DNA of 64,000 nucleotides from Candidatus Latescibacterota bacterium (GTDB lineage Bacteria; Latescibacterota; UBA2968; UBA8231): assembly GCA_965248265.1 (NCBI GenBank), contig CBDFJF010000002.1, positions 3,648,001-3,712,000 of the forward strand, given 5' to 3'. The notes under the pieces are model-generated. The model was not told the DNA's origin and ran no database searches. It saw only the letters and a list, made by a program, of their open reading frames with translations. Below are positions 10,105 through 45,762 of the stretch, in pieces (the first letter of the stretch is position 1; each line of letters opens with the position of its first letter). A program made the position numbers and the translations under genes.

Positions 10105-10106
10105 TC

Positions 10107-12130: not shown

Positions 12131-12158
12131 GAACGATCTCCCGAGTTCATATGTCGCT

Positions 12159-24075: not shown

Positions 24076-24133
24076 TTTTCCCCTAAAAAACTCCGCAAAA
24101 TACACATGATGGACCCCTTCACACGGTTAAAGG

Positions 24134-30300: not shown

Positions 30301-30766
30301 CAGATACGGAGACCGTATCCAGAAAACTCTCGCCGCCATTCACGCTCTTGGCGTACACGACGCCATAAACCGGTGTAGCGAAAGCGCCATTGTCGGTGTT
30401 GATGGTTCCGCGCTGCTGGACCCAGGCCCGGTGAATGAAACCGAACTGGTCAATGCTAATGGCCTGGGACATGTAGGCAGCGTTCCCGGCCTGCGCGGCG
30501 GGAAAGAACGGAACACTCTTTTCGAGCTTCTGGAAATTCCCGATGACGGGAAAATCCGCATTGGCCGCCTCGTTCAAGTCGACTCGCACCGTCACGTCCT
30601 TGTCCGTTACGAACGTGCTGGTGGTCGAACTGTCAGCGGCATTGAATCCAACAGGCGTCTGGTTCTCAAACACCGGCTGGGCATCGGCATCACCGCCGAA
30701 CCCGAAGCCAGCTATCAGAACCGCGACAGCCGTTCGGAAAATTTCACGCCTAAGACTCATAATCAA
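24359..30766 (-). CDS. Giant secreted surface protein: Asp-box propeller region, 4 Ig-like repeats, cohesin-like, dockerin-like, cohesin-like, FlgD-Ig/T9SS-type sorting domain
   Basis: Signal peptide (ADA-Q); SVNGGESF and SNDGGSSW Asp-boxes; GDATGDNQVDIAD...ADINNDGVINSLD dockerin loops; QNYPNPFNPSTEIKF...WDG...ASGVYFY; AAGGAG RBS. Confidence 0.9.
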   Translation of the reverse strand: MIMSLRREIFRTAVAVLIAGFGFGGDADAQPVFENQTPVGFNAADSSTTSTFVTDKDVTVRVDLNEAANADFPVIGNFQKLEKSVPFFPAAQAGNAAYMSQAISIDQFGFIHRAWVQQRGTINTDNGAFATPVYGVVYAKSVNGGESFLDTVSVSGTLRFDLITSSMTMDSGFSTVDIVVDGRGNPRVVYAMDHSPDGVTGGITENQTTTGTGNDRKGYDNIYFNYSNDGGSSWLPANDAVVVNDTATVQGRSNAFPRMAITLTDDCFIVYERQLNNATANFEDVIVAKMDADSLTGGSAQAVQIGSTGNTASRGGVRVDLDGSSGRAPDIAVGDDDVLHVSWYDENGAGVESIVHKTVPASVWDDVSAAGWNQGVGGDVVGSLDDEPANLGLGPTAAIIAANTAGGGLSSDRTFAAQAVGNSAVHIFSTVVVDRQRSPDRIYVLWKHTDAAAGTDGNDENINYDFYSYDGGIGPGSFDGTPTQAFPTNVAAAATYTTGNPAPLFQNMRGYQIENHWAFSDRIGAVVDDRRADQGDLHIVFSGAGSNDAVSRDVTGGTGQAVKILYSRFNGQEWELPQVVASAANNGAIHDDGVLEKHPELFEPDIAMISGDSNVYLTFVGGSPIAAGLATGPLAVAQGQDQAGRGSAALSNSNIAPLPYFKILGRVITDEDKSTPVGGFAYNLVYNPVNPQATSSRNLVHITVGDNANGAGIGATTPSTSSAPGGFLTGQWRSIQFSSMGVASLDPANFPLTFVAKGIANDVEATNDNGVWQGQNDEDGSVGLGEWGDDTDKVGLLVKLNVLASDSADNLFVISQSSAARPSGTGQQSVSQSISLRPGAVAAGSHAGTYVKGVRVDAARPGVADVGVNAAQGDEREAPVGSYFQMGANIAIVAANVAPVVRVVAPSASTSGFANESFTIRYVIFDDDDDVGATTGPTGADSLQMELYAYPDNGLTSVLDIRTFGNLIVDENDAFTAGFTSGSLAADGSGDLTESTSNTNIQDYSWDNPGLTLQTAYGFQSITKILDGTFFIYAVADDGANPPVFDVSEGPLTIRHIPLVKQITPTGTDTVDTGEFDDLSKTNPFKVLFTIVDFNDNAQVRLFVSTSSALVDSNASISAGIFPNATLELAGATPVQLSDSLRTDDDFEFDFDVTAQGAAGDSVIAQGNYFIYAVVTDGDSTIVGKSTQTLAIRHSPAFEFTAPLAGETRKINTTQGQTQYTFQWQRGRSDVDIDDNATISLYYTGLDPAVKDFSGTDSTDLVATTGTDSGAAVLIISGLSEDDEGGGDQFVWDLANPPGVLPKVFRQNPAPVAALPGNSANPFAYQVGATTDTAWVYAVVNDGSSGNVRVSLGGAVLLVGTQESPASSAPKVTMKTPPSGGQTLINGDVIRLEYDAFLIDDGTGTDDAYLRLYAAPANKYSTLTQLEGNMNGLGTGNADVLLINSITGADTTNAHVQTIRESDPKFFNWDTKTTSFPALAGGSTFDIFIAGSSNPRFGENIYISEVIDSVATGIGSQAQRAVLSKAPGTLSVVGTDPLYSIEMGPAALTASSGDTLDFDILINSQGSSTDLFALHLDVPRRYFEVIDQDTVTAGVQPFVDSVGAFQAPSTIAQNDTSTGDAQFLKLNFVEFSVTGEVIGRVTTPFDSSQVSATLRLLVKQFDGGAPLDTLLQWSTESGRTTALYRGINQLAAPTRDANVILTPRARLLVTVPLEGRSDYADTMDVHLREVGSTKDVTDQAYIASNDSTPVDLGGGVLEDSVNVPTSSFGTFQLIQIPPGIYELTVKAPGYVTGRTDTLNLFNGLTQAIEPTFGSDALGDLSPATPLGFLLGGDATGDNQVDIADANQIFAVWNLTPADAGFVRDADINNDGVINSLDIGFVSTNFNKFGAPPVFKPVVGGDNAGAIARVEGMEDVEAWWPGKVFELTATVEGMNDVTAYGMTMTYDPELVRPLEADQAVEQGDIFDENSAGSLFFQRVQPGVIEVTGSRIGRGWSARGDADLVTVHFVTLGDEPGVIDIASGNLVNSNYQGVQMQVDSAPALPTIAALHQNYPNPFNPSTEIKFDIPTARDVKLRIYNQLGQTVRTLVDNRMKAGTYNLKWDGADTQGRAVASGVYFYNLEAGEFSQIRKMMLVK

Positions 30767-31053
30767 ACACTCCTTCCATGGACACAGCTATTTTGCTGAA
30801 AGCGAACTAGCGCGATTGGCCGCAACCCATTTCCCTATGGACCGCCTACCAACCTCAAACAGACCTGAGGTCCGCCCCCACGGGCCTTCAGTCTGACGGT
30901 TGAGCTTAAGTGTTCAGTGAATCTGATGGTTGTTCTCTCCTTAACGTTCCTCGTGCGTTTCATGCGTTGCTAGTGCTGGTACATCTGTTCATGCTTCCAC
31001 TTCTTTGGATCTTACTGCCTACAGCTTTGCTCGATCGAAACTGTTGGGGAACA

Positions 31054-31218
31054 GTACGCGGAACTACGGACACCCCTACATAGAAAGTCCCCGGGTTCCT
31101 TACCCCGTTTATCGGCATCTGCAGTACGAACTTCAGGATATTTTTCATCAGGGTAGTAGTCGACGAACCCGGAGGCACTCCCTACGTTGCGCGTTGCCCG
31201 GTGAATTCGGCCGCGTAC
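31054..31218 (-). ncRNA. Candidate rod-shaped structured RNA (sRNA or 5' leader), family unassigned
   Basis: Five nested helices found by hand, with G-U pairs only in the minus-strand transcript; TATAAT at 31227-31222 just upstream. Confidence 0.5.
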
Positions 31219-31548
31219 ATTATTATATAGACGCTTACCAGCATCCCCCCTTCCCCTAAAAGGACCAGGAGTGAGTGGCACATCCACAGGCGCCAGAAGC
31301 ATAGTGCTCAAAAGTTCACCAATACTTGTCTTGCTCAGGCCAGATCCTTGCCTGTTCGAGTTTGCCCCCATATATTCGAAAGCCAGGGAGCCGGCCCATC
31401 GGTGAGGACGGGCGGCTCCGCTTCGCTTTCAGACAAAGCTGTGCCCCTTATGGTTAGGATCGGCCTCCGTCAGCACTTGCAGATGTGGGGGAGCTCGCGC
31501 TGAAGCGAGGGCACGGTATGGGACATAAACTTTGGTCAGTCCCAGTTA

Positions 31549-31564
31549 AGCAAGTGCCATGCCA
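31549..31564 (-). promoter_or_regulatory. Putative sigma54 (-24/-12) promoter pointing toward the giant surface-protein gene
   Basis: Minus strand TGGCATGGCACTTGCT, matching TGGCA-N6-TTGCW. Confidence 0.65.
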
Positions 31565-31602
31565 TCACCTAATCAGGTTCGTCTGACGATTGTATCATGC
31601 AC

Positions 31603-31630
31603 TTGCACAAACAGTAACGTCCTCTATTTA
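31603..31630 (+). promoter_or_regulatory. Putative sigma70 promoter for rpsT
   Basis: TTGCAC-N16-TATTTA. Confidence 0.35.
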
Positions 31631-31715
31631 AGCGGACTAGTCAGGGTCTGCTGAGGAAGTTTTTACCTAGACGAACGGTTCATCGCGACGTGGCTTGAAT
31701 GTAGGAGAAGACCTT

Positions 31716-31970
31716 TTGCCGAAGCCCAGATCATCAAAGAAGCGATTGAAACAATCCCTTGTACGGCGCGACCGCAATCGTGCCGTTATGTCGACGATGC
31801 GGACTGCTGTCAAAGCCGTGCGGCAGGCAGCTGACAAGGAAAGTGCGACTGCCGCCCTGGCCACGGCGATCGGAACAATCGATCACACGGCTCAAAAGGG
31901 TGTGATCCACCCCAACAAAGCCGCTCGCTACAAATCCCGTCTTACCAGGCAGGTACAGGCTCTTAACTGA
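31716..31970 (+). CDS. rpsT: 30S ribosomal protein S20
   Basis: TTG start after AGGAG; SSKKRLKQS...RNRAVMSTMRTAVK...KGVIHPNKAARYKSRL. Confidence 0.97.
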   Translation: MPKPRSSKKRLKQSLVRRDRNRAVMSTMRTAVKAVRQAADKESATAALATAIGTIDHTAQKGVIHPNKAARYKSRLTRQVQALN

Positions 31971-32003
31971 ATCTGGCCTCACACTGAAGCAACTACGATC
32001 GAG

Positions 32004-32038
32004 GCCTGTTGCTCCCAACCAGGAGCAACAGGCTTTTT
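32004..32038 (+). terminator. Rho-independent terminator of rpsT
   Basis: GCCTGTTGCTCC-caacca-GGAGCAACAGGC-TTTTT, perfect 12-bp stem. Confidence 0.9.
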
Positions 32039-32062
32039 CTGTTCATTTCCCTACATTTAGAG

Positions 32063-33769
32063 ATGCCCATGACGCTCTCTCGCCGGTCGCCTGGCGTCTC
32101 TTATGCTGTCCTAGTCGCCATCTGCACGCTCGCCGTCCACCTGATTGTACTCGGCAATGGCTTCCATTACGACGACGGCCACTCCATCGTTCGCAATCCA
32201 CACATCCGCGACTTGGGCAACCTGGGAGAATTCTTTACCGATCCAGCCATGTACTCGGAGAATCCGGCGTACGGCATGTTCCGCCCGCTGGTTCTTGTGT
32301 CCACGGCAATCAATTACCGTGTTTCCCACCTTGTTTCAGGTGAATCGGAAGACGGCTACGACCCATCCGGCTACCTGGCGCTGAATCTGGCTGTTCATCT
32401 GGCCAACTCGTTGCTGGTTCTGTCCATACTATCTCAATTGATTGTCCCTCAATCTATTAGGATCTTTGGAGCCGTTGCATTTGCGCTCCATCCACTTCAC
32501 GCCGAAGTCATCAACTACGCCAGTGCCCGGTCAGAATCCCTGGTCGCCTTTTTTTACCTTGGCGCCGTGTATGGCTATCTCCGTTGGCGATCCCTGGAAA
32601 AACGTTCAGCCATGTGGTTGGGGGTGTCCTCTGCCCTGTTTACATGCGCCCTGTTGACGAAGGAAATTGCAGTTACCCTGCCCCTCGCCCTGCTCGCTGT
32701 GGAGTACTATAGGCAGCAAGGCCTGAGGCCACGGTTGTTGCAGCTCGCATCGTTGCTCCCGAAAGTCCGCGACCTGACGATATACCTTGTCATATTATCT
32801 ATTTATTTGGTTGTATATCAACAGGTTACTGGATCCGAGTCTATCTCACCCATAGGCACAGAGGGTGCCATCAGATCGTGGAACAGCCAACTGGCAACGC
32901 AGGCTAAGGCCATCGTCCATTACATCCTTGGTGCCGTTCTCCCAGTCAGGATGAGTGTCTATCCGCAATTCCAGGAGTCCCCGTCCCTCATCGGGACAAT
33001 TCCCCTGGTGAGCGTCCTGATGACGTCATCTCTCTGCCTCGTTGCCTGGAGGCTGCGCTGGGCAGTACCTGCCCTCACCTTTGGTGTCAGCTGGTTCCTG
33101 ATTGCCCTGATTCCGACCAGCATCATTCCACTGCACATTCTGGTCAACGATCACCGTCCATACCTCTCGCTCGTCGGCTTCACACTGGCTTTCTGGACGC
33201 TTGCGACGCGCTTCAAGCACCGCTGGATTCTATGGACCTTGTGCGGCCTCTTGGGGTTGCTGGCCCATCAGAGAGACGCCGTGTGGAGAGACGAGATAGC
33301 TCTTTGGCAGGATGCGGCGCAGAGAGGTCCCATGATGCCGGAGGCCCATTTCAATCTTGGCCATGCCTATCACATGATGGGAAATCTGTCTGGAGCCGTG
33401 GGTGCGTACGAAAGAGCGGTGGAACTGAGTCCGCGATACGCTCGAGCCCAGATAAATCTGGGGGCCCTTTACCGGGAACAGGGACGAACTGAGGAGGCCA
33501 TGAAAGCGTTTCAGCATGCCCTGGAAGGCACGCCAACATCGGTGGAAGCCCTTAATAATTTAGGACTTACGCACGCCACCCAGGGCGCTGACGAGATCGC
33601 AATCGGGCTTTACAAACAAGCGCTCGCGCTTGAGCCGGACAAAGCAGAGCTATGGTTGAATCTGGGCCTTTCTCTAAGGAACGCTGGCAACAGGAAAGAG
33701 GCGATCCGGGCATTGAAACGAGCTCTCGAGTTGGACCCGCAGATCAAACACCGTTTTCCAGCCCGATAG
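32063..33769 (+). CDS. TMTC-like GT-C glycosyltransferase with C-terminal TPRs (paralog 1)
   Basis: NGFHYDD..SIVRNPHI, MFRPL, FALHP..AEVINY..ARSE, LLTKE, VNDHRPYL, W.DEIALW.DA, several TPRs. Confidence 0.88.
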   Translation: MPMTLSRRSPGVSYAVLVAICTLAVHLIVLGNGFHYDDGHSIVRNPHIRDLGNLGEFFTDPAMYSENPAYGMFRPLVLVSTAINYRVSHLVSGESEDGYDPSGYLALNLAVHLANSLLVLSILSQLIVPQSIRIFGAVAFALHPLHAEVINYASARSESLVAFFYLGAVYGYLRWRSLEKRSAMWLGVSSALFTCALLTKEIAVTLPLALLAVEYYRQQGLRPRLLQLASLLPKVRDLTIYLVILSIYLVVYQQVTGSESISPIGTEGAIRSWNSQLATQAKAIVHYILGAVLPVRMSVYPQFQESPSLIGTIPLVSVLMTSSLCLVAWRLRWAVPALTFGVSWFLIALIPTSIIPLHILVNDHRPYLSLVGFTLAFWTLATRFKHRWILWTLCGLLGLLAHQRDAVWRDEIALWQDAAQRGPMMPEAHFNLGHAYHMMGNLSGAVGAYERAVELSPRYARAQINLGALYREQGRTEEAMKAFQHALEGTPTSVEALNNLGLTHATQGADEIAIGLYKQALALEPDKAELWLNLGLSLRNAGNRKEAIRALKRALELDPQIKHRFPAR

Positions 33770-35831
33770 GATTCGACGACTGACTCTCTGGTTCTAAGGA
33801 CAGGAAATACAGAGCAAAGTCCCCGAAACTCTGCTGAGCCAGCCCACTGCTGAAGACGTATAGCCCATAGTGTCGCCGGGCGCTCACTTGAGCCAGGTAC
33901 AGCTCCGCGAAAGGCCTTTCAACTGTACCCTCCAACTCAATCGTTTGAGTCAGTGGTTTGGCCATCTGAACAACCTGCAGATCCTCCAGGCCGGCGGCTG
34001 ACCCAGCCTGATACAGAGAGACAAAAGCCCCTTCGGCCGCTGATTTTGTATAGGCCAGCAGAAGCAACCCATCGGCACGAGGATGGTAGCGAAAGCTGGA
34101 GTGCAGGACAAAGGTTGCCTGGTCCGTACTGGAGAGCCCTAGTTGCGAGCTCCCAGCAGCATCGACAGCGACCGAAATCCTTGTCGTCTTCGGGTGGCTC
34201 TCGTAATAGACCCGCCAGGTATCAGCTGCCAGGCTCCGCGGGCCGTCAATGACCGCGCTCGGCGCCTGCAATGACTCGAACAGGCGTAGATTGCCAGTTT
34301 CACGGACAACACGGAATGCTTTCGCGGGGAGTTCATATTTCCTGGATCGATCAGTGTGGCCGGTTTTCGCGGTGGTGAAGTTAGTCGTCAACATGTAATC
34401 GCCGAGCGAGTACCGGGGACCGTCACCTTGTCGGGCCGCCAAGAGAAGCCTTTTCAAACTCCCGGATAGGACAACCTCGCTGACACGCTGTAGCAGTAGA
34501 TCATCCGTGTAGTAGCCAAGAGAGCTGTCCATGATGTAGGGTGCGACCACCATATCGCCATGGCGTGCCTCCTCAGCGATCATCCGACCGAACTGCCGAT
34601 ACCGGGTATCGGTCGGTCCATCAAAGCTGTCGGGTAAAAAGCTGGCGACTGCGATACCGGTTGTTGCGACCAGAGGCATCGAGCGCCTAAAACCCGATCC
34701 CCAATCAGGTCTCAAGCGTTGAATCAACTCGGGAGCCGCTGTCACACCTTTAGCAACCAAGAGCATGAGGAATGGTGTAGCAAAAACATACACTCTGCTG
34801 GGTCCAGCAACGCCCATTAGCAGATTGAGCGCGAATGGGACAGTCATGACCAGAAGGACCAGGGCCATTGTCCGCCTGTGCTCGAAAGCCAGCACGACCA
34901 TTCCCAGCAACCCGAATGCAAGGCTCAACAACGGCCAGCGTGATGGGCCCGCCTGTGCCAGAACGCCGAGCCATATATCCACGAGGGCACGCGGATCTTG
35001 TGCCAGGGGAATCCCCCACTGACGGCTCAGCAGCTCCAGTTGTTCGCGCATCGGCAGGTAGACGGCGGCGATCATCACCAACATGATTGTCCCTGCAGCA
35101 ACGAACGGCCATATCAGCTTCAACGAGCGGGAAACTGGACCGTCGGCTAACCAGGTGGCGCGCAACAGACACCCCCCAGCCCATACCAGTACGGCAGACA
35201 CCAGATAAATCCCACTGGGGACCGTGAGTACGGCCAGGAAACCGCCAACGGCACAACCACCCCACCAACACAGGCCGCTTATTGATTTGGTGGAGTCCAC
35301 TGCTCTCAACGCGAAGTACGCGTGGAGCGTGGACATCAATACCAACAGGGTATACCCCCTGGCCTGAATGGATGCGGAGACCTGACCCGGGCACAGTGCC
35401 ATCAGCAGCGCAGCCACGAGCGCAGTCAGAAGTGACCCTGTGAGCACTCTCGCCAGGAAGAAGGAAGCGGCAACTGTGGCAATTCCCGCGGTAGCGGCGG
35501 GCAAACGAATCGCCCAGTCGCTGTTGCCAAACAGTGTGGCGCTCAACTTCACGCACAGGGTATGGAAGATGTGATTGTTCGGAGCTTCGTACGATGAAGG
35601 GATCGCTGTCCAGGGTTTCGACGCGAATGTGACCCAGGTGAAGACCTCGTCGTGACCGAGGGAACGGTCGATTCCCTGCAGGCGGAGCCAGGCACCAACC
35701 GCTAGCGCTAAACCCAGAATTACCCAAACGGCCGCGGATGAAATGCCGTCTGACTTAGATTGCCCCGTCGAAACGCTCATTTGCTGAAGATCGCCAGATC
35801 TCTTCGATCCGTGAGCCTCATGATCACTCAC
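33744..35831 (-). CDS. GT-C glycosyltransferase (PMT/GT39-like) with extracytoplasmic C-terminal domain
   Basis: RL..I.RSLGHDEVFT, PNNHIFHT, AIRLP, QARGY; many TM helices; GTGA overlap with cysK stop. Confidence 0.82.
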   Translation of the reverse strand: MSDHEAHGSKRSGDLQQMSVSTGQSKSDGISSAAVWVILGLALAVGAWLRLQGIDRSLGHDEVFTWVTFASKPWTAIPSSYEAPNNHIFHTLCVKLSATLFGNSDWAIRLPAATAGIATVAASFFLARVLTGSLLTALVAALLMALCPGQVSASIQARGYTLLVLMSTLHAYFALRAVDSTKSISGLCWWGGCAVGGFLAVLTVPSGIYLVSAVLVWAGGCLLRATWLADGPVSRSLKLIWPFVAAGTIMLVMIAAVYLPMREQLELLSRQWGIPLAQDPRALVDIWLGVLAQAGPSRWPLLSLAFGLLGMVVLAFEHRRTMALVLLVMTVPFALNLLMGVAGPSRVYVFATPFLMLLVAKGVTAAPELIQRLRPDWGSGFRRSMPLVATTGIAVASFLPDSFDGPTDTRYRQFGRMIAEEARHGDMVVAPYIMDSSLGYYTDDLLLQRVSEVVLSGSLKRLLLAARQGDGPRYSLGDYMLTTNFTTAKTGHTDRSRKYELPAKAFRVVRETGNLRLFESLQAPSAVIDGPRSLAADTWRVYYESHPKTTRISVAVDAAGSSQLGLSSTDQATFVLHSSFRYHPRADGLLLLAYTKSAAEGAFVSLYQAGSAAGLEDLQVVQMAKPLTQTIELEGTVERPFAELYLAQVSARRHYGLYVFSSGLAQQSFGDFALYFLSLEPESQSSNPIGLENGV

Positions 35832-36745
35832 TCATACACGCCCGTGCTCAGATAGCGCATACCACTGTCGCACAGAATAGTCACGACACTCTGATCAGAC
35901 GCCATCTCGGCCGCAACCTCAGCCGCGGCGAGAGCATTCGCCCCTGCTGATATGCCGACGAGGACACCCTCTTCGCGCGCGAGTCGACGCGACATCAGAT
36001 AGGCATCGTCGTCGCTGACCGTCCTCACCTCATCTAGCACATCGCGGTTGAGGACGTCCGGCACGAAGCCGGCCCCAATCCCCTCGATGTAGCTCAATCC
36101 AGGAGCACCGCCCGACAGGACCGCGGAGCCTTCGGGCTCAACGGCAATGACGCGCACGTCAGGAAGCTCCGCCTTCAGAATCTCACCGATACCGGTTATC
36201 GAACCCCCCGTGCCAACCCCGGCGACGACGGCGGCGATGCCTTCCGGCATCTGTGCCAGGATTTCCCTCGCCGTGGTTTCGCGGTGTATCTGCGGATTCG
36301 CCAGATTGGCGAACTGCTGCGGCAGAAAGTATCCCGGATTCTGACGCGTCAGTTCCAGCGCCCGTTCGATGGCTCCACGCATGCCCTCGGAGGCCGGTGT
36401 CAACAGCACCTCAGCGCCGTACGCCTGCATCTGTTGCCGGCGTTCCTTACTGGCCGTATCGAACATGGTCAGGATCAACCGGTAGCCCTTCACCGCCGCT
36501 ACCATGGCGAGGCCGATCCCGGTGTTGCCGCTGGTCGGCTCGACGATGGTTCCACCGGGCTTCAGGTCGCCGGCCTCTTCGGCTGCCTCGATCATGGCCA
36601 GTGCAATCCGGTCCTTGACGCTGCCACCTGGGTTGGCGGACTCCAGCTTGGCCCATACCTGAGCACCGTCTTCGTTTACCACACGGTTCAACCGCAGCAT
36701 CGGCGTGGCGCCTATGAGCTCGAGGACATCGTTTGCGCGTTTCAT
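35828..36745 (-). CDS. cysK: Cysteine synthase A (PLP)
   Basis: KLESANPGGSVKDRIA, EPTSGNTGIGLA, QQFAN, GVGTGGS, IEGIGAGFVP, GISAGA; ATG 36745. Confidence 0.93.
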   Translation of the reverse strand: MKRANDVLELIGATPMLRLNRVVNEDGAQVWAKLESANPGGSVKDRIALAMIEAAEEAGDLKPGGTIVEPTSGNTGIGLAMVAAVKGYRLILTMFDTASKERRQQMQAYGAEVLLTPASEGMRGAIERALELTRQNPGYFLPQQFANLANPQIHRETTAREILAQMPEGIAAVVAGVGTGGSITGIGEILKAELPDVRVIAVEPEGSAVLSGGAPGLSYIEGIGAGFVPDVLNRDVLDEVRTVSDDDAYLMSRRLAREEGVLVGISAGANALAAAEVAAEMASDQSVVTILCDSGMRYLSTGVYE

Positions 36746-36768
36746 CGTACTGACTCCGATGTTGTCAT

Positions 36769-38850
36769 CTATTGTGTGGTCTCCAATGTCGTGATCCGCT
36801 TGCTGATGGATTCTCCCAAGGCGGCGTTCGGTGCGTGGGGTAGGAACTTGCGGTAGTTGCCAACGGCAGCGCTTCTCATTCCCAGGTTTTCCTGCGCTCT
36901 GGCCAGAGCATAGTGCAACTTGACCCTCTCGGGCCACCGGCGCAGGCCGTGTGCACTCAGTGCTTGCGCCTCCTGAAATCGTCCCAGGCGCAGGTACACG
37001 AGGGCGAGATTGTAGCGAGCATCGTGCATCTTCTCATCAATGGATATGGCCACCTGGTAATGGTGGATGGCCGCTTCCAGTTTGTTCTGGTCGAAATGCA
37101 GATTCCCAAGACTGTAATGCGTCACGGCAGAGGCCGGCGCGAGGACAAGCGCTCTTTTTAGCGCGCTCTCCGCCGCCGCAATCTGACCTCGGTCTTTGTA
37201 GAGCAGTCCTAGTGCTCGCCATACATCAGGATTACTCGGCTCCAGCGTGCGCGCCTGTTCCATCAAGGCGATGGACTCGTCCGGTCGTACCTGGCGCAAC
37301 AGCGTCGAGAGGTTCACCAATGCGGGCACGAAGGTGTCCCCACTCGCCTGCAGACTTACCCGGTACGCCTGCTCAGCCACGACGGGGCGGTCCAGCATCC
37401 TGAGCGCGTTGCCCTTGTTGTAATGGACCTCCGGGACCTGGGGTGCCAGCATCGATGCGGTCTCATAACGCCTCAGTGCCTCATTGAAATCCCCTCGAGA
37501 TTCATGGACACCACCCAGTTCCTGATGTGCCCGGAACATCAAGGGTCCCTTGCTGACCGCATCCGACCAGATCGTGAAATTGCTTTTCCATGCATGATTG
37601 CGCTCATGAGATACCAGCGCGAACGACAACACGCACATGCAAAGGATGATCCGGATCGTCCAAACCCGATTTGACCGAGCGCCCTTCTCTACAACGGCGA
37701 TCAATCCGGCGAGTGCGATCGCGCCGAAGGCCATAGGCAGATAGAGACGGTGTTCATTCACCAGGACATTGAGCGGAACGATGACCGTTGGTAGTAAACT
37801 CAAGCCTGACCAGACCGCCGGTAGCAGCAGCGCCCAAACCACTATCGCGCGACTGCGTATGAGCAGGACGACGAGACTCACCATCAAGGCAGTGGCGACG
37901 ACGACGGCCGCTGATGCCAGCGATTCGCTGGCCAAGAACTGATGATCGATACTGAGCTTGATCGGCATGACGGTCAGCATTGCGTAGTAAGCGAGCGCCT
38001 TTGCCTGCGTGAACAATTGCGTGTCCAGTGAACGTACGGGCGTGGTCAGCGCTGTCGTGGCGAACTCTCTGACGACGATGATGTACCCGGCTGCGACAAT
38101 CCACAGTTGTAGATGTACTCGCAACAACCGGGCTACATCCGTGCCTGCATCCATCCGCGCGTCGGTCTCGACGTGGCCGCCTCGTCTTCTCCACCAGTCG
38201 AAGAACAAGATGGCCGCTGGCAGCGTTGCTACGATGGATTTGGCCAGCAGGCCAACGACCAGGGCAGCAACCGCAACCGAATAGAGCCACTTGCAGCTCG
38301 CCTTCTGGCCAACCGGCAAAATTCGAAATCGCACGAATGCGACCAGGCCAAGCAGGTACCCCAGCGCAGCCAGTGACTCCGAGCGGCTGCTGATGTAGTT
38401 GACGGTTTCCGCTTGTACGGGATGGAGTGCGAATACCAGGCTGGCGAATCCACTCCACATGGGTTTGAGACCGAGCCCACGGGCGAGTGCAAAAACCAAC
38501 ACTGCGCACACGGCGTGCACGCCCAGGTTCACCAGTCGATAGCCGTGGGCGCGGTATTGACCGAAATGGTGGTTGAGCGCGTAGGAAGTCAGCACCAGCG
38601 GGCGAAACATGGCGCGCTGGGTGAGCATGGAGAAGGTCTGTGGATCGGTGAAGAACTGTGGAATGTTGGTGAGACTGCGAATGTGGCGATTCTGGACGAT
38701 TGAGTGGTAATCGTCGTAGTGAAAGTCGTTGTCGAGGGAGTTCGCGTAGGTGAGGAAAAGGAGTACGACGACCAGGCCGAGCCCGATGCCTACGGGTACC
38801 GATGCCGCCGATTTCTCAACTGGGGGAGCTTTGGGTTGACGTTTGTTCAA
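36769..38850 (-). CDS. TMTC-like GT-C glycosyltransferase with C-terminal TPRs (paralog 2)
   Basis: NDFHYDDYHSIVQNRHI, MFRPL, FALHPVQAETVNYISSRSE, VNEHRLYLP, W.SNFTIWSDA, several TPRs. Confidence 0.88.
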   Translation of the reverse strand: MNKRQPKAPPVEKSAASVPVGIGLGLVVVLLFLTYANSLDNDFHYDDYHSIVQNRHIRSLTNIPQFFTDPQTFSMLTQRAMFRPLVLTSYALNHHFGQYRAHGYRLVNLGVHAVCAVLVFALARGLGLKPMWSGFASLVFALHPVQAETVNYISSRSESLAALGYLLGLVAFVRFRILPVGQKASCKWLYSVAVAALVVGLLAKSIVATLPAAILFFDWWRRRGGHVETDARMDAGTDVARLLRVHLQLWIVAAGYIIVVREFATTALTTPVRSLDTQLFTQAKALAYYAMLTVMPIKLSIDHQFLASESLASAAVVVATALMVSLVVLLIRSRAIVVWALLLPAVWSGLSLLPTVIVPLNVLVNEHRLYLPMAFGAIALAGLIAVVEKGARSNRVWTIRIILCMCVLSFALVSHERNHAWKSNFTIWSDAVSKGPLMFRAHQELGGVHESRGDFNEALRRYETASMLAPQVPEVHYNKGNALRMLDRPVVAEQAYRVSLQASGDTFVPALVNLSTLLRQVRPDESIALMEQARTLEPSNPDVWRALGLLYKDRGQIAAAESALKRALVLAPASAVTHYSLGNLHFDQNKLEAAIHHYQVAISIDEKMHDARYNLALVYLRLGRFQEAQALSAHGLRRWPERVKLHYALARAQENLGMRSAAVGNYRKFLPHAPNAALGESISKRITTLETTQ

Positions 38851-38939
38851 TCGACCACCTCAGCACGGCGGCTGGGGAGGTCGCACGCGTGTGGAACTGC
38901 AGCAGGACCCGTAACGCGGGAGAGTATTCCGGAAGACTC

Positions 38940-39215
38940 TTATCCCCCCGCTATCGCAGGCACGATGGAAACGACGTCACCATCGCTCAGAGCCGTGTCC
39001 TTGCCGTCCAGAAAACGGATGTCTTCGTCATTGATGTAGATGTTGACGTAACGCCTGATGTCACCGGACTCGTCCGTCAGCTTTTCCTTGATGCCCGCAT
39101 ACGCCTCTTCCAGATTTTCGACCAACTCCCCAACCGATGCTGCCTCTAGTTCAACCTCGGCCTGGTTATTGGTCAATTTCCGCAGGGGTGTCGGTATGTT
39201 GATGGTTACGGCCAT
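38940..39215 (-). CDS. MoaD/ThiS/CysO-family ubiquitin-like sulfur carrier
   Basis: MAVTINIPTPLR...RRYVNIYINDEDIRFLDG.DT.L.DGD.VSIVPAIAGG; C-terminal Gly-Gly; AGGAG RBS. Confidence 0.93.
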   Translation of the reverse strand: MAVTINIPTPLRKLTNNQAEVELEAASVGELVENLEEAYAGIKEKLTDESGDIRRYVNIYINDEDIRFLDGKDTALSDGDVVSIVPAIAGG

Positions 39216-39336
39216 AAATCGTTCGCTCCTGTTTCGTCGTTCTGGAGGTCGCTCACCCACCGCGCACACCAGCCAGTTTGGTTTCCTACCAGTAAAAAAC
39301 GTAATCCATGGCATTATCCGCAAAGTCGGCAACGCC

Positions 39337-41235
39337 TCATTGTTTCTCGAGACGCGCAATCTGCTCGTTCGCCCTTGCTGCCAAGGCGCCATTTGGCTCA
39401 ATCTCGAGCACTCGGCGAAAGGCGTTGATGGCATCTGAGGGACGCATCAGGTCCCGGAGCACGTTGCCCAGATTGAACCACCCGTCGACAGAGTTTTCGT
39501 CTGCCACCAGCGCTTGCCTGTAGGAGCGCTCGGCCTCCGAGAACTGCCCCAGAGCACGATGAGCCGCTCCTTTCCCCACCAGGAACCTGCTGCGATCTGA
39601 GCTTCCGGCCAGGGCAATGGCCTGCTTGTAGTGATCAAGTGCGTGCGCCGGATCTGCCTCGTGTTGCAGCGCTATATATCCCAAACGTCCATGGGCGACG
39701 CCGTCGGTGTCCTCGTAGCGAACAACAGCCTCATACTCATCTTTGGCCAGACGCCACCTTCCCTGCCGTAGAAGCAGACTCGCCAGGTTCAACCGGACTG
39801 GAATCGAATCGGGCGAATAACTCAGCAAGACGCGGAACTGCTCTTCTGCTTCTCTGGAACGACCCGCCCTCATCAACAGGTGGCCGAGGTTGTTGCGCGA
39901 GCTGACATGGGCAGGCCTCAATTTGATCGCCCTGCGGTAGGATTGCTCAGCCTCGTCGGGAGCTCCGGTTTTCTCCAGGGCGTCGGCCAGTCGCAGGTGC
40001 GGTTTTACCATCAAAGGCGCTTTCACAGTCGCATCGAGCCACAGCGACACCTCGTCCTTCCAGACTTCCCCACGCGCGACTGTAAGGCTTATGGCGACAG
40101 CCACCCAAACGGAAACGATGGCCATCGTCACCGCGCGCCGAGAGTGCATGCGGCCGAGACAACCGGCGATGACGATGGCGGCCCCTGCCGAGGCCAGGTA
40201 GCATCGGTGCTCGTTGACGAGAACGATCAACGGCACAATCGCCGACGGCAGGAGCGTAATGGCCGCCCACGAAACTCCAAAGCGCACCCAGGTGGCAGCG
40301 GAATGAATCGTACGATTTCCGACGAGCAACACAACAGCCAGGCTGATCAACAGTAAGCCGGCGACTAACACAGGCTCATCCACCACGCTTCGCGACACGG
40401 CAAACTGCCGCTCGACGCTGAGGTGGACCGGAAAAGGCAGCATGGTCAGGTAATAGGCCCAGGCTTTGGCTTGAGTCCACAACTGAACATCGAGATCCCT
40501 GATCGGACTCAGCATGGCCTTGCCGATTAGGCTGCGGCTATAGACGAGGTACACGGCGACGATGCCGAGCATGACCAGATGATGCATTCGTCGCTCATTC
40601 CAGGCTGACCGCCAGGAACCGGTGGATAGCCAATCGCACAAAAGCCACAACGGCACGGTGATGACAGCTACGGACTTGGTCAGAATACCCAGCGTCGCAC
40701 TCGCCAGCGAGATGAAAAACCAGACCCCCCTATGAAACTCGGCTTTGGTAGAACGCACGTAACACAGACAACTCGCCAACAGAAAAGACCCCATCAGCAA
40801 CTCGGAACGGCTACTGACATAGTTGACAGCTTCGGAATTCAGCGGCGTGACTGCGAACATCAAGCCGGCGACGAGGGCCGGCGCCGACGGCATCCCCAAC
40901 GCCAGCAGCAAACCGTACAGGAGCGCGACGTTGACCCCGTGCAGGAGCACGTTGCCGGCGTGGTACCAGGTGGGATCGAGCTCGCCAACCAGGTAGTTGA
41001 AGGCGTATGAGGTCAACAGAACCGGCCTGTACATGGCGCTTTCCGGGTTCTGCGAAAACAGACTCGGATCGACAAAAAAATCCCCGACCCGCTCCAGCGA
41101 GCGCACATGGGGATTGTTGACGATTGAATGAAAATCGTCGTAGTGGAAACCGTTGCCTAGAGCCGGCAAGTAGAGGACGACGGCAAGTGCAAACAGACCA
41201 CCCGCAAGCAGGCGCTCCCTCCCGATTCGCGCCAT
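39337..41235 (-). CDS. TMTC-like GT-C glycosyltransferase with C-terminal TPRs (paralog 3)
   Basis: NGFHYDDFHSIVNNPHV, MYRPV, EAVNYVSSRSE, VNEHRCYL, WKDEVSLW.DA, several TPRs. Confidence 0.88.
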   Translation of the reverse strand: MARIGRERLLAGGLFALAVVLYLPALGNGFHYDDFHSIVNNPHVRSLERVGDFFVDPSLFSQNPESAMYRPVLLTSYAFNYLVGELDPTWYHAGNVLLHGVNVALLYGLLLALGMPSAPALVAGLMFAVTPLNSEAVNYVSSRSELLMGSFLLASCLCYVRSTKAEFHRGVWFFISLASATLGILTKSVAVITVPLWLLCDWLSTGSWRSAWNERRMHHLVMLGIVAVYLVYSRSLIGKAMLSPIRDLDVQLWTQAKAWAYYLTMLPFPVHLSVERQFAVSRSVVDEPVLVAGLLLISLAVVLLVGNRTIHSAATWVRFGVSWAAITLLPSAIVPLIVLVNEHRCYLASAGAAIVIAGCLGRMHSRRAVTMAIVSVWVAVAISLTVARGEVWKDEVSLWLDATVKAPLMVKPHLRLADALEKTGAPDEAEQSYRRAIKLRPAHVSSRNNLGHLLMRAGRSREAEEQFRVLLSYSPDSIPVRLNLASLLLRQGRWRLAKDEYEAVVRYEDTDGVAHGRLGYIALQHEADPAHALDHYKQAIALAGSSDRSRFLVGKGAAHRALGQFSEAERSYRQALVADENSVDGWFNLGNVLRDLMRPSDAINAFRRVLEIEPNGALAARANEQIARLEKQ

Positions 41236-41247
41236 GGTGTTCCCTGC

Positions 41248-41721
41248 TCACTCCCCTTCGTCGATGTCGATCTGCACTTCTTCGAAATCCGCAGCCTCAC
41301 CATTCCATGCGAAAGCCTTGTGTCCCTTAACCTCGTCGTCGAAGACCGAGACAACGAGGTGAATCGCATCTGGATAGGCCGGTTCATCCCAGGTCAGGGC
41401 GCGCTCCTTATCTTCGTCCGAGAAGTACGCATCGCAGTCGATGTGCGAGTGGTAGAATCCGGAAACAGCACCGCCTCCCCGTTCGGCCTGGGTGATTACG
41501 GTTAGCAACTCCTTCGGATCGATGAAGTAGGCGATGCGGGCCTCACGAGGATACTGCTGCGGATCCTCCGCATGCAGACGATCCTGGATATTGACGCAGG
41601 GATGGGCGGTAGAGGGTCCCCCCTCCGGGCCGACGGTGAGCAAGCCGCAACACTCGGCCGGGTGTTCGTCGCGCGCCTGGGCGTAGATCTTGGCCAACTG
41701 TGTTCGGGATATCTTGAGCAT
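41248..41721 (-). CDS. Mec-like JAB/MPN (M67) metallopeptidase
   Basis: HPAECCGLL and JAMM motif FYHSHIDCDAYFSDED; start ATG 41721. Confidence 0.9.
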   Translation of the reverse strand: MLKISRTQLAKIYAQARDEHPAECCGLLTVGPEGGPSTAHPCVNIQDRLHAEDPQQYPREARIAYFIDPKELLTVITQAERGGGAVSGFYHSHIDCDAYFSDEDKERALTWDEPAYPDAIHLVVSVFDDEVKGHKAFAWNGEAADFEEVQIDIDEGE

Positions 41722-41726
41722 ATCTC

Positions 41727-42674
41727 TCAGTTGTCTCGTCGTCTCTCCGGCAACGTGACGGCCCCTTCCAGGGCCTGCCTCCACATTGGCGTGGTCATGT
41801 ATTTGTCACCGCCATCACAGAATACGGTTACGACGACGCCTTCATGCAGCTGCATGGCGATCTCGCGAGCTGCCCAGTAAGCGGCGCCTGCGGACTGGCC
41901 GACCAGGACACCCTTTTCTCGCGAGAGCTTGACCGTCATGTCGTAGGCGATTTCGGTGTCGAGTCCGATAACGTCGTCCAGCGCGCTTCGATCATATATC
42001 CCCGGCACGATGGAGCTGTCCATGTGCTTGAGCCCTTCAATACCGTGGAAAGACTCCGCCGGCTCTGCTCCGATAACCCGAATACCCGGATTCAGTGCTT
42101 TCAAACCCCGCCCAGTACCCATCACGGTACCACTCGTCCCCATGGTAGCTACAAAGTGTGTCACGCGGCCATCGGTCTGCTCCCAGATCTCGGGCGCTGT
42201 CGTGTCCCGGTGGGCTTTCCAGTTCGACGGATTGTTGTACTGGTCTGGCTTGTAGTACCGATCGGGATCTTCCTCCAGCAGACGGCGCGCCAGCAGGATG
42301 GCGCCGTCAGAGCCTTCTCCGGGATCACTGAAGACGACTTCTGCCCCGTAGGCAGCCAGGATCGCCTTGCGCTCGGCAGTGACATTCGAGGGCATCGCCA
42401 GCCGCACGTGATATCCCAGTGCAGCCCCGATCATGGCGTAGGCGATACCCGTGTTCCCCGAGGTAGAATCGAGGATGATTTTGTCCGGCGTCAACTGACC
42501 ACTGCTCTGGCCATCCACGATCATCCGCAAGGCTGGGCGATCTTTGACAGAGCCGGCGGGATTGAAGAATTCGAGCTTGGCGTATAGCTCAACATTCGGG
42601 GGCAGATCAGGATCCTTCAGTCGCAACAGCGGGGTATTGCCAATGGCATCAACGACGGAGCCGGGCGCCAGCAT
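41727..42674 (-). CDS. cysM: PLP-dependent cysteine synthase B / CysM-like
   Basis: IGNTPL, KLEFFNPAGSVKDRPA, DSTSGNTGIA, DQYNNP, GTSGT, IEGLK; adjacent to mec. Confidence 0.8.
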   Translation of the reverse strand: MLAPGSVVDAIGNTPLLRLKDPDLPPNVELYAKLEFFNPAGSVKDRPALRMIVDGQSSGQLTPDKIILDSTSGNTGIAYAMIGAALGYHVRLAMPSNVTAERKAILAAYGAEVVFSDPGEGSDGAILLARRLLEEDPDRYYKPDQYNNPSNWKAHRDTTAPEIWEQTDGRVTHFVATMGTSGTVMGTGRGLKALNPGIRVIGAEPAESFHGIEGLKHMDSSIVPGIYDRSALDDVIGLDTEIAYDMTVKLSREKGVLVGQSAGAAYWAAREIAMQLHEGVVVTVFCDGGDKYMTTPMWRQALEGAVTLPERRRDN

Positions 42675-43213
42675 TACTCCTCACCCGCTCCCACCGAACC
42701 ATGGAGGGTTTTGGTCTCCTGCTGCATGCTCTCCAGCTTCGCTTCAAGCGCGGCCAGTTCTGCATGTGCGGCTGCATTCTGATCGGCTCCGTCCAGACGC
42801 CGTTGATGCAGAACGCGAATGATGTTGCGGCTGACACTGCGGTTGATACCGGCGTTCTGCCTCATCAAGCGCTCGAAGGCAACCTTCTTCATGACCAGCA
42901 GGTTGGAATCGGCTGAAGAGCGAACGGTGGCCGAGCGCGGTTGGCCGGTGAACAACCCCATTTCCCCAACCGGGCTCACGGGAGCGACCCTGGCGATCTC
43001 GACTCCAGTCTCATCGTGGACCGTGAGCTCACCACTGAGCAGGATGGACAGATCGTCACTGGGTTGGCGGATCAGGCACAGCGTCTCCCCTTTTTTTACA
43101 GACTTGAACTCACATGCCTGCAGAATCGACGCCGCATCCTGCCGCGAGAGGTCCCCGAACATGGGGATCTTGTCCACGACCTGCAGCAGCGCTTTCAGCT
43201 TGTCGGCGTCCAT
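42674..43213 (-). CDS. Cyclic-nucleotide-binding domain protein with C-terminal coiled coil (no HTH)
   Basis: IPMFGDL...ILLSGEL...GEMGLFTGQPRSATVRS; TAATG overlap with cysM. Confidence 0.85.
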   Translation of the reverse strand: MDADKLKALLQVVDKIPMFGDLSRQDAASILQACEFKSVKKGETLCLIRQPSDDLSILLSGELTVHDETGVEIARVAPVSPVGEMGLFTGQPRSATVRSSADSNLLVMKKVAFERLMRQNAGINRSVSRNIIRVLHQRRLDGADQNAAAHAELAALEAKLESMQQETKTLHGSVGAGEE

Positions 43214-43352
43214 GGCATCACGTTTTGGTTTGGTTCCAGCCGGCCAAAACAGGACCTCGGCCGGAGTATCGGATCGTTTTTTGGAATATAGCGGACAGCG
43301 TGGGTACGCGCGAAAGAATTCTCTATAACATACACAGGATGCGTGACTTACC

Positions 43353-43382
43353 TTGACATCATCCTTTTTAGCCCCTTAGTTT
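43353..43382 (+). promoter_or_regulatory. sigma70 promoter of aspS
   Basis: TTGACA-N18-TAGTTT. Confidence 0.55.
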
Positions 43383-43430
43383 TTTGTCTCCGTTCAATCC
43401 CACTTTCCCGTTGCCAAAACCGCCCTTCAA

Positions 43431-45215
43431 ATGTCGAGTTCGATAGAGCCTCTCAGTGGTTGGAAGCGCACGCACGATTGCGGCAGTCTTGGCCTGGAAA
43501 ATCTGGGCGAGCAAGTTATCCTGATGGGCTGGGTCGCAACACGCCGCGACCACGGTGGGGTCATCTTCATCGACCTCCGAGACCGCTACGGGGTATCTCA
43601 GGCGGTCTTCAACCCGCAACACAGCGAAGCGGCCCACGCCAAAGCCGATCAAGTTCGCAATGAATATGTGGTTGCGGTACGTGGAGTCGTAGAGCAGCGT
43701 CCAGAAGGAATGGTCAATCCCCGCCTTGGAACGGGCGCCATCGAGATCAACTGCGACAACCTTCGCATCCTGAACGCGTCCCGACCCTCCCCCTTTCCGC
43801 TGGATGAATCCGTCGAGGTGGGCGAGGAGACCAGACTGCGCTATCGCTATCTCGATCTGCGTCGGACCCCGATGCAGAACAATCTAATGATCCGTCATCG
43901 GTGCTATCAGGAAACTCGCCGCATCCTCGTGGAGAAGGATTTTATCGAGGTCGAAACGCCCTTTCTCATTCGGAGCACACCGGAAGGAGCTCGCGACTAT
44001 CTCGTCCCCAGCCGCGTCAATCCAGGGCAGTTCTTCGCCCTGCCGCAATCGCCTCAGACCTACAAGCAACTGCTCATGATCGCCGGCATGGATCGCTATT
44101 TCCAAATCGTTAAGTGCTTCCGCGACGAAGACTTACGGGCAGACCGCCAGCCGGAATTCACGCAGATCGATATCGAGATGTCGTTCATTGACGAGGAAGA
44201 CATCATGGGGGTCGCCGAGGACATCACCAGGGGGCTTTTCAGGAAGATTCTGGATGTCCAGTTACCGGACCCCTTGCCCCGCCTGACCTACCATGAAGCG
44301 ATGGATCGCTTTGGTTCCGACAGCCCGGACCTGCGCTTTGGGCTCGAGTTCAAGAATGCCGCAGAGGCCGGACTGGCATCGGAATACAAGATATTCCGCT
44401 CCGTCCTTGATAGTGAAGGTGAAGTAAAGGGAATCAATGTAAAGGGCCGCAGTGACTTACCTAGAAATCAAATAGATCAGCTCATAGCCTTCGCGAAAGA
44501 GGCTGGTGCCGGCGGACTCAGCTGGATCAAGCACACGGACGCCGGGCTCGAGTCGTCGATCACCAAGTTTTTTCCCGACAAGGCCCAGAGTCTGCTGATC
44601 GAGGCACTGGAGTCCGAGCCGGGTGATCTATTGTTGCTCGTGGCAGACAAGCCGGGAAAGGTCGCAAAGGTTCTCAGCGCCTTGCGCCTGGAGTTGGCGG
44701 CCCGTCTCAATCTGATCCCCGAAGGCTCCTGGAGCCCTCTCTGGGTGACCGAATTCCCCCTGCTCGAGGATGACCCTGAAGGTGGCCGCTATGCCGCCGT
44801 GCATCATCCTTTCACCTCGCCTGCTGAGGATGATCTCGCATCACTCGAGGATGACCCGCTCGGGGTACGTGCTCGCGCCTATGACCTGGTCCTCAACGGC
44901 ACCGAAGTAGCAGGGGGCAGCATCAGGATTTTTCAGAGTGAGATCCAGAGTAAGGTGTTCGAGTTGCTCGACATCTCTGTCGAGGAGGCGAACAGCAAAT
45001 TCGGCTTCCTCCTCGAGGCACTCCAGAGCGGAGCGCCACCGCACGGCGGCATCGCCTTCGGTTTCGACCGCCTGGTGGCCATGTTGGCTGGCGAGGAGTC
45101 TATCCGTGACGTGATCGCCTTTCCCAAGACCAATAGGGCCTTCGGGCTCATGGAGAGTGCCCCGGGTCTGGTAGACGATCAGCAACTGCGAGAACTAGGT
45201 ATCCGCTTGCGCTGA
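43431..45215 (+). CDS. aspS: Aspartate--tRNA ligase
   Basis: RTHDCG, RRDHGGVIFIDLRD, TPEGARDY, CFRDEDLRADRQPEFTQIDIE, PPHGGIAFGFDR. Confidence 0.98.
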   Translation: MSSSIEPLSGWKRTHDCGSLGLENLGEQVILMGWVATRRDHGGVIFIDLRDRYGVSQAVFNPQHSEAAHAKADQVRNEYVVAVRGVVEQRPEGMVNPRLGTGAIEINCDNLRILNASRPSPFPLDESVEVGEETRLRYRYLDLRRTPMQNNLMIRHRCYQETRRILVEKDFIEVETPFLIRSTPEGARDYLVPSRVNPGQFFALPQSPQTYKQLLMIAGMDRYFQIVKCFRDEDLRADRQPEFTQIDIEMSFIDEEDIMGVAEDITRGLFRKILDVQLPDPLPRLTYHEAMDRFGSDSPDLRFGLEFKNAAEAGLASEYKIFRSVLDSEGEVKGINVKGRSDLPRNQIDQLIAFAKEAGAGGLSWIKHTDAGLESSITKFFPDKAQSLLIEALESEPGDLLLLVADKPGKVAKVLSALRLELAARLNLIPEGSWSPLWVTEFPLLEDDPEGGRYAAVHHPFTSPAEDDLASLEDDPLGVRARAYDLVLNGTEVAGGSIRIFQSEIQSKVFELLDISVEEANSKFGFLLEALQSGAPPHGGIAFGFDRLVAMLAGEESIRDVIAFPKTNRAFGLMESAPGLVDDQQLRELGIRLR

Positions 45216-45319
45216 AGTGGGATGTCGCGATCACCGACAGGCCTGCTTCGCGGGTTGGTCAAGGCTCCAGATTGATCGACCAAAAACTTCGTAAATCTTG
45301 TAACGACAGTAAGTTTACC

Positions 45320-45348
45320 TTGACATCCCAATTGGGCAGCCTTACTTT
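45320..45348 (+). promoter_or_regulatory. sigma70 promoter of lipoprotein-LysM pair
   Basis: TTGACA-N17-TACTTT; CCCAATTGGG palindrome in the spacer. Confidence 0.6.
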
Positions 45349-45432
45349 TCCCGGCGTACAATTTATAGGGTTCAGCCGTCTCGGTTTGAGCTTGGATTTC
45401 GACTGTTACACAGAGAAATTGGAGGGGTTTGA

Positions 45433-45717: not shown

Positions 45718-45762
45718 ACCCCCTACCGCAGGATGCAGAGGATAAAGGGTGAGGACGGAATA

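Follow-up and report, generated by a model that had tools for sequence, protein, structure and literature searches.

GT-C/TPR genes of TMTC-like architecture, probably inherited without shared chemistry, interrupt a CysO-type cysteine operon in one Latescibacterota family

A 64,000-nucleotide (nt) stretch of a Candidatus Latescibacterota genome (G000:C2:3648001-3712000; hereafter the window) carries a string of eight minus-strand open reading frames (ORFs), spanning positions 33744-43213, in which genes of a sulfur-carrier cysteine pathway alternate with genes for membrane proteins of the GT-C glycosyltransferase type. Along the minus strand, the order is cNMP-binding - cysM - mec - TMTCa - cysO - TMTCb - cysK - PMT_2 GT-C, where cNMP stands for cyclic nucleotide monophosphate and TMTCa and TMTCb are two paralogues with C-terminal tetratricopeptide repeats (TPRs). 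With homology-supported starts (mec ATG 41721, cysO ATG 39215, cysK ATG 36745), the intergenic gaps along the string are -1, 5, 12, 121, 89, 23 and -4 nt. The stop of the cNMP-binding gene and the start of cysM thus overlap by 1 nt, and the start of the PMT_2 gene overlaps the stop of cysK by 4 nt. Order, coordinates and gaps all match an earlier note that had been made on this DNA from its letters alone. The genes of the string, a third paralogue that converges on its end and the gene divergent from its head are:

42674..43213, minus strand: stand-alone cNMP-binding protein, 179 aa, first gene of the string (PF00027, 61 bits)
41727..42674, minus strand: CysM-like cysteine synthase dependent on pyridoxal 5'-phosphate (PLP), 315 aa (PALP 230 bits; TIGR01138 cysM 373 bits, cut-off 394)
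41248..41721, minus strand: Mec-type JAMM metalloprotease, 157 aa (Prok-JAB, 59 bits)
39337..41235, minus strand: TMTCa, GT-C membrane domain with C-terminal TPRs, 632 aa, between mec and cysO (TPR Pfam matches; model fold)
38940..39215, minus strand: CysO-type sulfur carrier with a Gly-Gly end, 91 aa (ThiS, PF02597, 63 bits; TIGR01687 MoaD-family 52 bits, cut-off 49.5)
36769..38850, minus strand: TMTCb, second GT-C/TPR paralogue, 693 aa, between cysO and cysK (TPR matches; 34% identity to TMTCa)
35828..36745, minus strand: CysK, cysteine synthase A of the O-acetylserine sulfhydrylase type, 305 aa (TIGR01139 413 bits, cut-off 351)
33744..35831, minus strand: PMT_2-type GT-C protein, 695 aa (PF13231, 41.6 bits)
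32009..33769, plus strand: TMTCc, third GT-C/TPR paralogue, convergent on the 3' end of the operon, its true start likely near 32069 (TPR matches)
43431..45215, plus strand: aspartyl-tRNA synthetase (AspRS), divergent from the operon head and outside the system (tRNA-synt_2, 401 bits)

The cysteine genes form a system of known type. In mycobacteria, CysO is activated by an E1 with rhodanese and ThiF domains, CysM joins thiocarboxylated CysO to an activated serine, and cysteine is then set free by Mec. The mec-cysO-cysM locus of Mycobacterium tuberculosis (Rv1334-Rv1336) likewise unites a JAMM protease, a Gly-Gly carrier of the ThiS/MoaD type and a CysM-type PLP enzyme in one string. It differs from the operon described here, in which the order is cysM-mec-cysO-cysK with cysK inside the same operon, and which in the window's family is split by two GT-C genes. 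Moreover, the CysM of the window scores higher against the Escherichia coli than against the mycobacterial enzyme: among relatives of solved structure, the best is E. coli/Salmonella CysM (2bht, 237 bits), and M. tuberculosis CysM (3dwg) reaches 187 bits. In an alignment of nine Mec orthologues, residues E23, H91-S92-H93, S101 and D104 are invariant and match the JAMM motif E...HxH...S..D, and the C-terminus PAIAGG is invariant in nine CysO orthologues. Six of these carry one extra residue beyond the two glycines; the CysO proteins of the window (38940-39215), of G020 (L079:6131-6406) and of G009 (L081:9954-10229) end exactly at Gly-Gly. As no mec was found in G020 and G009, their Gly-Gly-ended carriers would need no processing protease.

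The window holds no ThiF/MoeZ gene, and the earlier statement that a MoeZ/MoeB activator is lacking there stands. The sole rhodanese+ThiF gene of the genome lies ~79 kb from cysO and ~54 kb past the window end (L001:1414-2679, 421 aa; rhodanese 63 bits, ThiF 281 bits), so that the activator gene stands apart from the operon, as does that of MoeZR in the M. tuberculosis system. Its rhodanese domain is N-terminal to ThiF, the opposite of the domain order in mycobacterial MoeZR, and a class-V aminotransferase (cysteine-desulfurase-like) gene precedes it. A serine acetyltransferase (CysE, TIGR01172) above cut-off was not found in the G000 genome (best 73 bits against 210). CysK may therefore lack the partner it usually has, with O-phosphoserine as the possible serine donor; the missing CysE fits such a route without proving it. 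In all 14 loci of the three sister families and in 10 of the 30 family genomes, cysM, mec and cysO directly adjoin one another; the window keeps their order and common strand, with TMTCa splitting them. We read the locus as a CysO-type cysteine operon of the ordinary kind, cysM-mec-cysO-cysK, with inserted genes. A search of published full texts found nothing on TMTC-like genes in cys operons or on this Latescibacterota locus.

The interrupting genes encode a membrane domain of ~400 residues followed by TPRs, with TPR_1/2/11/16 matches at residues 413-616 in TMTCa and 441-667 in TMTCb. The N-terminal domains of the three TMTC-like proteins gave no Pfam match even at E<=5, hence no DUF1736 (PF08409), and a search of PDB sequences with TMTCa returned TPR proteins only, none for the membrane domain. 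The AlphaFold model of full-length TMTCa (predicted local distance difference test, pLDDT, 91.2) shows a TPR superhelix, and its Foldseek matches were likewise TPR proteins only. The N-domain (pLDDT 85.7) was folded alone to reach GT-C matches. Those listed for it were nearly all GT-C enzymes (Pmt4, AglB, STT3, AftA, Pmt1/2, ArnT, DPY19 and PglB) or subunits of the glycosylphosphatidylinositol (GPI) transamidase, with TMq 0.35-0.54; the best was Pmt4 (9i5k, E 5.6e-4, TMq 0.52), and three low-probability transporter matches stood near the bottom. Across 24 paralogues and orthologues, D33-D34 in the first loop, M68-x-R70-P71, R143-S144, K187 and N341-x-H343-R344-x-Y346 are invariant, and TMTCb shares these motifs.

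This pattern resembles the eukaryotic O-mannosyltransferases TMTC1-4, which combine a multi-span GT-C domain, a DD in the first outward loop and C-terminal TPRs. PMC7801869 tabulates the TMTC motifs M1 (DD), M2 (YRP), M3 (R-x-E/D), M4 (K), M5 (DW) and M7 (E-x-R-x-Y); judged against these, motifs resembling M1, M2, M3, M4 and M7 are conserved here, M2-M7 being only partly matched, whereas the M5 'DW' is absent and a conserved VEHQF stretch takes its place. Further differences are the lack of a PF08409 (DUF1736) match and the fact that a single bacterial genome has 14 close paralogues. The nearest clusters in the Atlas feature search were bacterial and PMT_2-like, and a eukaryotic TMTC_DUF1736 cluster came at rank 18 (score 0.92). 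The label TMTC, given to these genes earlier, is thus borne out for the GT-C fold, the DD motif and the C-terminal TPRs but not for DUF1736. We describe them as putative GT-C/TPR enzymes of TMTC-like architecture rather than as demonstrated members of the eukaryotic TMTC family. On the catalytic side, the sequence has an N-E-H-R-x-Y loop followed by two hydrophobic segments with a short basic loop between them, which would place the TPRs on the side of the DD loop, that is, the periplasmic side, as in TMTCs. This suggests that GT-C active site and TPRs both face the periplasm. CysO, CysM and Mec belong to cytoplasmic families.

The paralogues belong to a larger set. G000 has 14 close TMTC paralogues (35-40% identity), of which ten lie in tandem upstream of the window, three within it and one elsewhere; 13 of the 14 fall within ~65 kb. 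The tandem array, with ~10 same-strand TMTC-like paralogues, lies upstream of the window at 4-25 kb from its start (G000:C2:3623470-3644201). G004, G006 and G020 have 12-14 TMTC matches each, several of them in arrays. As far as searches show, this large bacterial GT-C/TPR expansion is undescribed in the literature.

The arrangement was followed in related genomes. We found mec in 36 of 41 genomes, G000 included, and read the loci around it in 33 relatives, over ~4-20 kb each depending on the contig, leaving out G026 and G038 for their short contigs. AspRS served as the synteny marker for the window's family; it adjoins the operon in 29 of 30 family loci. The states of the 19 family genomes besides G000 are:

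cysM-mec-TMTCa-cysO-TMTCb(-cysK): 11 genomes (G005, G011, G019, G021, G012, G008, G023, G024, G013, G022, and G016, whose contig ends in TMTCb)
contig ending in TMTCa: 1 genome (G003)
TMTCa alone: 1 genome (G014)
TMTC fragments alone: 1 genome (G001)
contiguous operon: 5 genomes (G017, G010, G018, G015, G002)

A scan of the collection with a Mec alignment returned 80 loci, titled Candidatus Latescibacterota (some Gemmatimonadetes), Nitrospirota/Nitrospirae/Thermodesulfovibrionia (20 loci) and Verrucomicrobiales (one); one of the 80 was a short, uninformative contig. Twenty loci had the AspRS marker of the family, 13 with a TMTC gene after mec and 7 contiguous; ten of these were contigs already counted, and the ten new ones divided five and five between the two states. 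TMTC genes thus lie inside the operon in 20 of the 30 family genomes with mec (G000 included), and the operon is contiguous in the other 10. None of the 59 non-family mec loci, the 20 labelled Nitrospirota or Thermodesulfovibrionia among them, had a TMTC-like gene within 10 kb. CysO-type cysteine operons are widespread in Latescibacterota and in the sampled Nitrospirota-labelled genomes. In the three sister families, all of whose 14 loci read cysM-mec-cysO(-cysK) with cysK as the last gene of the order, the genomes have 0-5 distant TMTC-like genes (<=34% identity), megabases away from the cys operon. As for recurrence (INTERLEAVING), the interleaved order is found in at least eight genera of the window's family and not in distant genomes. 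Chance alone does not account for the arrangement, since many related genomes reproduce it with positional orthologues. The check that the earlier note had asked for, recurrence in distant genomes, thus came out positive with orthologues inside the family and negative beyond it. The observation it had named as speaking against a functional link, contiguous cysM-mec-cysO-cysK with TMTC genes elsewhere, is what the sister families and a third of the same-family genomes have. The PMT_2 gene at the end of the string had no tblastn match (E<=1e-8) in the loci of any of the 33 relatives; it is an addition that G000 alone shows.

A tree of the membrane domains separates the inserted genes by position. 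All 14 position-a proteins form one clade (Shimodaira-Hasegawa-like approximate likelihood ratio test, SH-aLRT, 99), as do 9 of 11 position-b proteins (SH-aLRT 93) and all 6 convergent position-c proteins (SH-aLRT 98). Two quick five-gene species trees disagree on the deep branching order of the family and share one conclusion, that the contiguous family genomes belong to no fewer than four separate groups. Interleaved genomes are present in every deep clade, and at least five state changes are required. That all contiguous family genomes form one clade was rejected by an approximately unbiased (AU) test (p 4.5e-49), the group tested having been named after the first tree was inspected. G001 has a decaying TMTC remnant in its operon; apart from it, no TMTC remnant was found at E<=1 in the enlarged mec-cysO gaps of the contiguous family genomes. 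The single clade of position-a proteins points to one ancestral insertion followed by at least four losses, and the simplest history would be that each paralogue was inserted once in the family ancestor and then deleted repeatedly. An alternative raised earlier, that the transferases had entered an active operon by chance, is thereby supported as to the insertion, which would nonetheless be no recent accident but one ancient event spread over at least eight genera.

Conserved order has to be read against the conservation of the region as a whole. As a baseline (PERMISSIVENESS), 27 of 30 family loci retain a neighbouring block of unrelated genes (PhoH/7TM-HD/AspRS), and two of the three exceptions are contig ends. 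Because flanking genes of no related function are equally syntenic, conserved order at this depth is expected from descent alone. The internal junctions of the operon also carry other foreign genes. Ten sister-family loci have a gene for a flavin adenine dinucleotide (FAD)-dependent oxidoreductase of ~340 aa between mec and cysO (for example L106:10510-11544, L100:10727-11740 and L156:10453-11469), and in one sister family the cysO-cysK junction, the one occupied by TMTCb, holds an Rrf2 regulator (119 bits; L057:10542-10973). Foreign genes at these places indicate that the junctions tolerate insertions. In the relatives, the spacing is -14 to 13 nt from mec to TMTCa, mostly 2-43 nt from TMTCa to cysO and -4 to 15 nt from TMTCb to cysK, with one further value of 754 nt attributed to a truncated ORF. 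Because of this tight spacing and the overlapping stop and start codons, we infer that the inserted genes are co-transcribed with the cys genes. A promoter and terminator scan of the window gave one promoter-like site, inside TMTCb, and 14 terminator-like sites, all in coding sequence, with none in the gaps; an Rfam scan of 31000-46000 at E<=0.1 gave no match, so no riboswitch or leader was found. A search of sequencing records listed 7 runs from 3 studies and no RNA run among them.

Each of the two modules (INDEPENDENCE) also occurs without the other. The contiguous genomes G017, G010 and G015 have no TMTC-like match genome-wide (E<=1e-20), and the contiguous G018 and G002 have one each, at 31% identity. 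Conversely, neither mec (E<=1e-10) nor a cysO orthologue was found in G006 and G004, which have 14 and 13 TMTC matches and best ThiS-like matches of 28% and 35% identity, respectively; in G006, TMTCa directly adjoins AspRS and every cys gene is gone. In G009, cysO alone remains of the cys genes at the locus, and in G020, cysM and mec are deleted and cNMP-TMTCa-cysO-TMTCb is kept in tight order. On this gene content, the cys and TMTC modules are separately dispensable.

A carrier kept without its usual partners could be something other than a cysteine carrier, namely a ubiquitin-like modifier of the SAMP/Urm1 kind with Mec as its isopeptidase and the TMTC-like proteins as targets or partners. 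The pair does resemble archaeal SAMP1/HvJAMM1, a beta-grasp Gly-Gly protein with a JAMM protease, since the best NCBIfam neighbours are archaeal SAMP1 for CysO (53 bits) and desampylase for Mec (62 bits), and the CysO of G020 and G009 persists with no mec or cysM nearby and no mec found genome-wide. Both scores, however, fall below their cut-offs (60 and 130 bits), the cysM-mec-cysO-cysK context is a signature of the cysteine pathway, and in G006 the TMTC genes persist without a CysO orthologue. We give this idea very little credence.

The earlier note had proposed, as one of two readings, a chemical link in which sulfur is channelled into the glycoprotein pathway. The CysO thiocarboxylate would supply the sulfur for a lipid-carried thio-sugar or an S-linked glycan that the TMTC-like enzymes then transfer, and the interleaving and probable co-transcription are in favour of this. 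There is a precedent for borrowed carriers: in the BE-7585A producer, BexX reportedly uses CysO/MoeZ sulfur carriers for 2-thiosugar synthesis, and there the carriers are encoded outside the sugar cluster. Similarly, a CysO-type carrier and the single MoeZ-type E1 of G000 could in principle serve other acceptors. The ThiG-like thiosugar synthase that defines that system has no counterpart at the locus and no convincing one elsewhere in the genome: a search for ThiG/BexX-like genes (PF05690) in the whole G000 genome found none in the window and one partial match of 28.5 bits on the other contig. Pfam and NCBIfam searches found no sugar-activating or sugar-modifying gene in the operon, either. 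The predicted topology, moreover, separates the two chemistries, since both the GT-C active site and the TPRs would be periplasmic; TMTC-rich genomes without a found CysO, Mec or CysM orthologue exist, as does the reverse; and the arrangement does not recur outside the family. The channelling of sulfur into glycans was not upheld by these results and we hold it to be highly improbable, and the same goes for the broader notion that the interleaving is functional, with CysO supplying sulfur for a thio-modified lipid-linked sugar or acting in some other way with the TMTC-like enzymes. Were it true, the giant secreted surface proteins encoded in the window would bear sulfur-containing O-glycans.

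The explanation that we find rather likely is that GT-C paralogues hitch-hiked in an ancestral CysO-type cysteine operon and came to share its transcription by descent, without shared chemistry. In the family ancestor, the operon would have gained two paralogues of an expanding TMTC-like GT-C/TPR family, each at a different internal junction, with the cNMP-binding gene at its head and a third paralogue converging on its tail. The inserted genes would sit on the same transcript, their expression riding on the cys promoter. The membrane would probably lie between the two modules, with sulfur transfer on its cytoplasmic side and, facing the periplasm, transfer of a lipid-linked sugar to secreted proteins. 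Neither would need the other, no sulfur would flow into glycans, and the order would persist by vertical inheritance in a highly syntenic region. The gene identities, the GT-C fold, the positional orthology, the distribution and the independent losses are the observations on which this account is built; co-transcription, topology, the donor and acceptor of the transferases and the want of a chemical link are the parts that it supplies by reasoning.

Several observations weigh against hitch-hiking. GT-C genes joined the operon at least four times, as TMTCa, TMTCb, a same-strand TMTC gene after cysK (G005/G019) and the PMT_2 gene of G000, which is more than one neutral accident predicts. The cNMP-binding orthologue is present at 13 of 22 TMTC-bearing family loci and at none of the 10 contiguous ones, hinting at a module with its own regulator. 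A Pfam search found no DNA-binding domain in the protein of the window. The G020 arrangement could give CysO a role beside the TMTC proteins, and a functional reading would explain both this retention of cysO between TMTC genes and the repeated GT-C arrivals. At two sister-family loci, a gene for an epimerase/dehydratase of sugars dependent on nicotinamide adenine dinucleotide (NAD) and a cupin gene stand between mec and cysO (L108:10439-12623; L110:10453-13681), a point in favour of sulfur entering glycans. Finally, the genomes used for absence are 85-93% complete and, as kin, non-independent samples, so their absences are to be read as 'not found'.

The main rival to hitch-hiking, which we judge unlikely though well short of negligible, is selected co-regulation without shared chemistry. 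One regulon of stress or growth state would then unite the cysteine genes with the TMTC-like transferases and the cNMP protein, for example coupling the remodelling of envelope glycoproteins with thiol supply, and selection for joint expression rather than inertia would keep them on one transcript. The repeated GT-C additions, the restriction of the cNMP gene to TMTC-bearing loci and the string kept by G020 after its loss of cysM and mec all speak for it, as do the tight, partly overlapping junctions that are kept across genera. Against it, each module was lost alone in several lineages, unrelated neighbour genes are just as syntenic, the arrangement is limited to one family, and the low cysteine content of the giant secreted proteins gives no sign of a link through cysteine demand.

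If hitch-hiking is right, the locus is an example of misleading operon membership, in which genes of an expanding family sit in an essential biosynthetic operon and are inherited family-long without shared chemistry. Annotation by guilt by association would here wrongly predict a sulfur-glycan pathway. The locus also illustrates that the internal junctions of CysO-type operons accept foreign genes.

The cys operon lies at the border of a glycosylation region, a glycan island plus genes for giant proteins, that makes up the left half of the window. The island (window 1-16446) encodes a D-aminopeptidase, a polysaccharide deacetylase, two AsnB-type amidotransferases, a GFO/IDH/MocA oxidoreductase and two methyltransferases, together with two GT4-type (Glycos_transf_1) and two GT2 transferases. 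The giant proteins, of 1483 and 2135 aa, are encoded on the minus strand at 19654-24105 and 24359-30766 and have C-termini of the FlgD_ig / Por_Secre_tail type, as in type IX secretion systems (T9SS). Cysteine makes up 0.05-0.13% of their residues, compared with 1.23% genome-wide, and Ser/Thr 14.5-16%, compared with 11.3%. These cysteine contents ruled out one idea that had been considered, that the operon meets the cysteine demand of cysteine-rich substrates encoded next door. It is plausible, by analogy with the action of TMTCs on animal cadherin domains, that the giant secreted proteins are substrates of the TMTC-like enzymes. One Latescibacterota family harbours a large, unstudied TMTC-like GT-C/TPR expansion beside giant secreted proteins, possibly the bacterial equivalent of domain-specific protein O-mannosylation. 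In many relatives, tblastn matches to the larger giant protein, which may reflect just a shared C-terminal domain, adjoin the convergent TMTCc.

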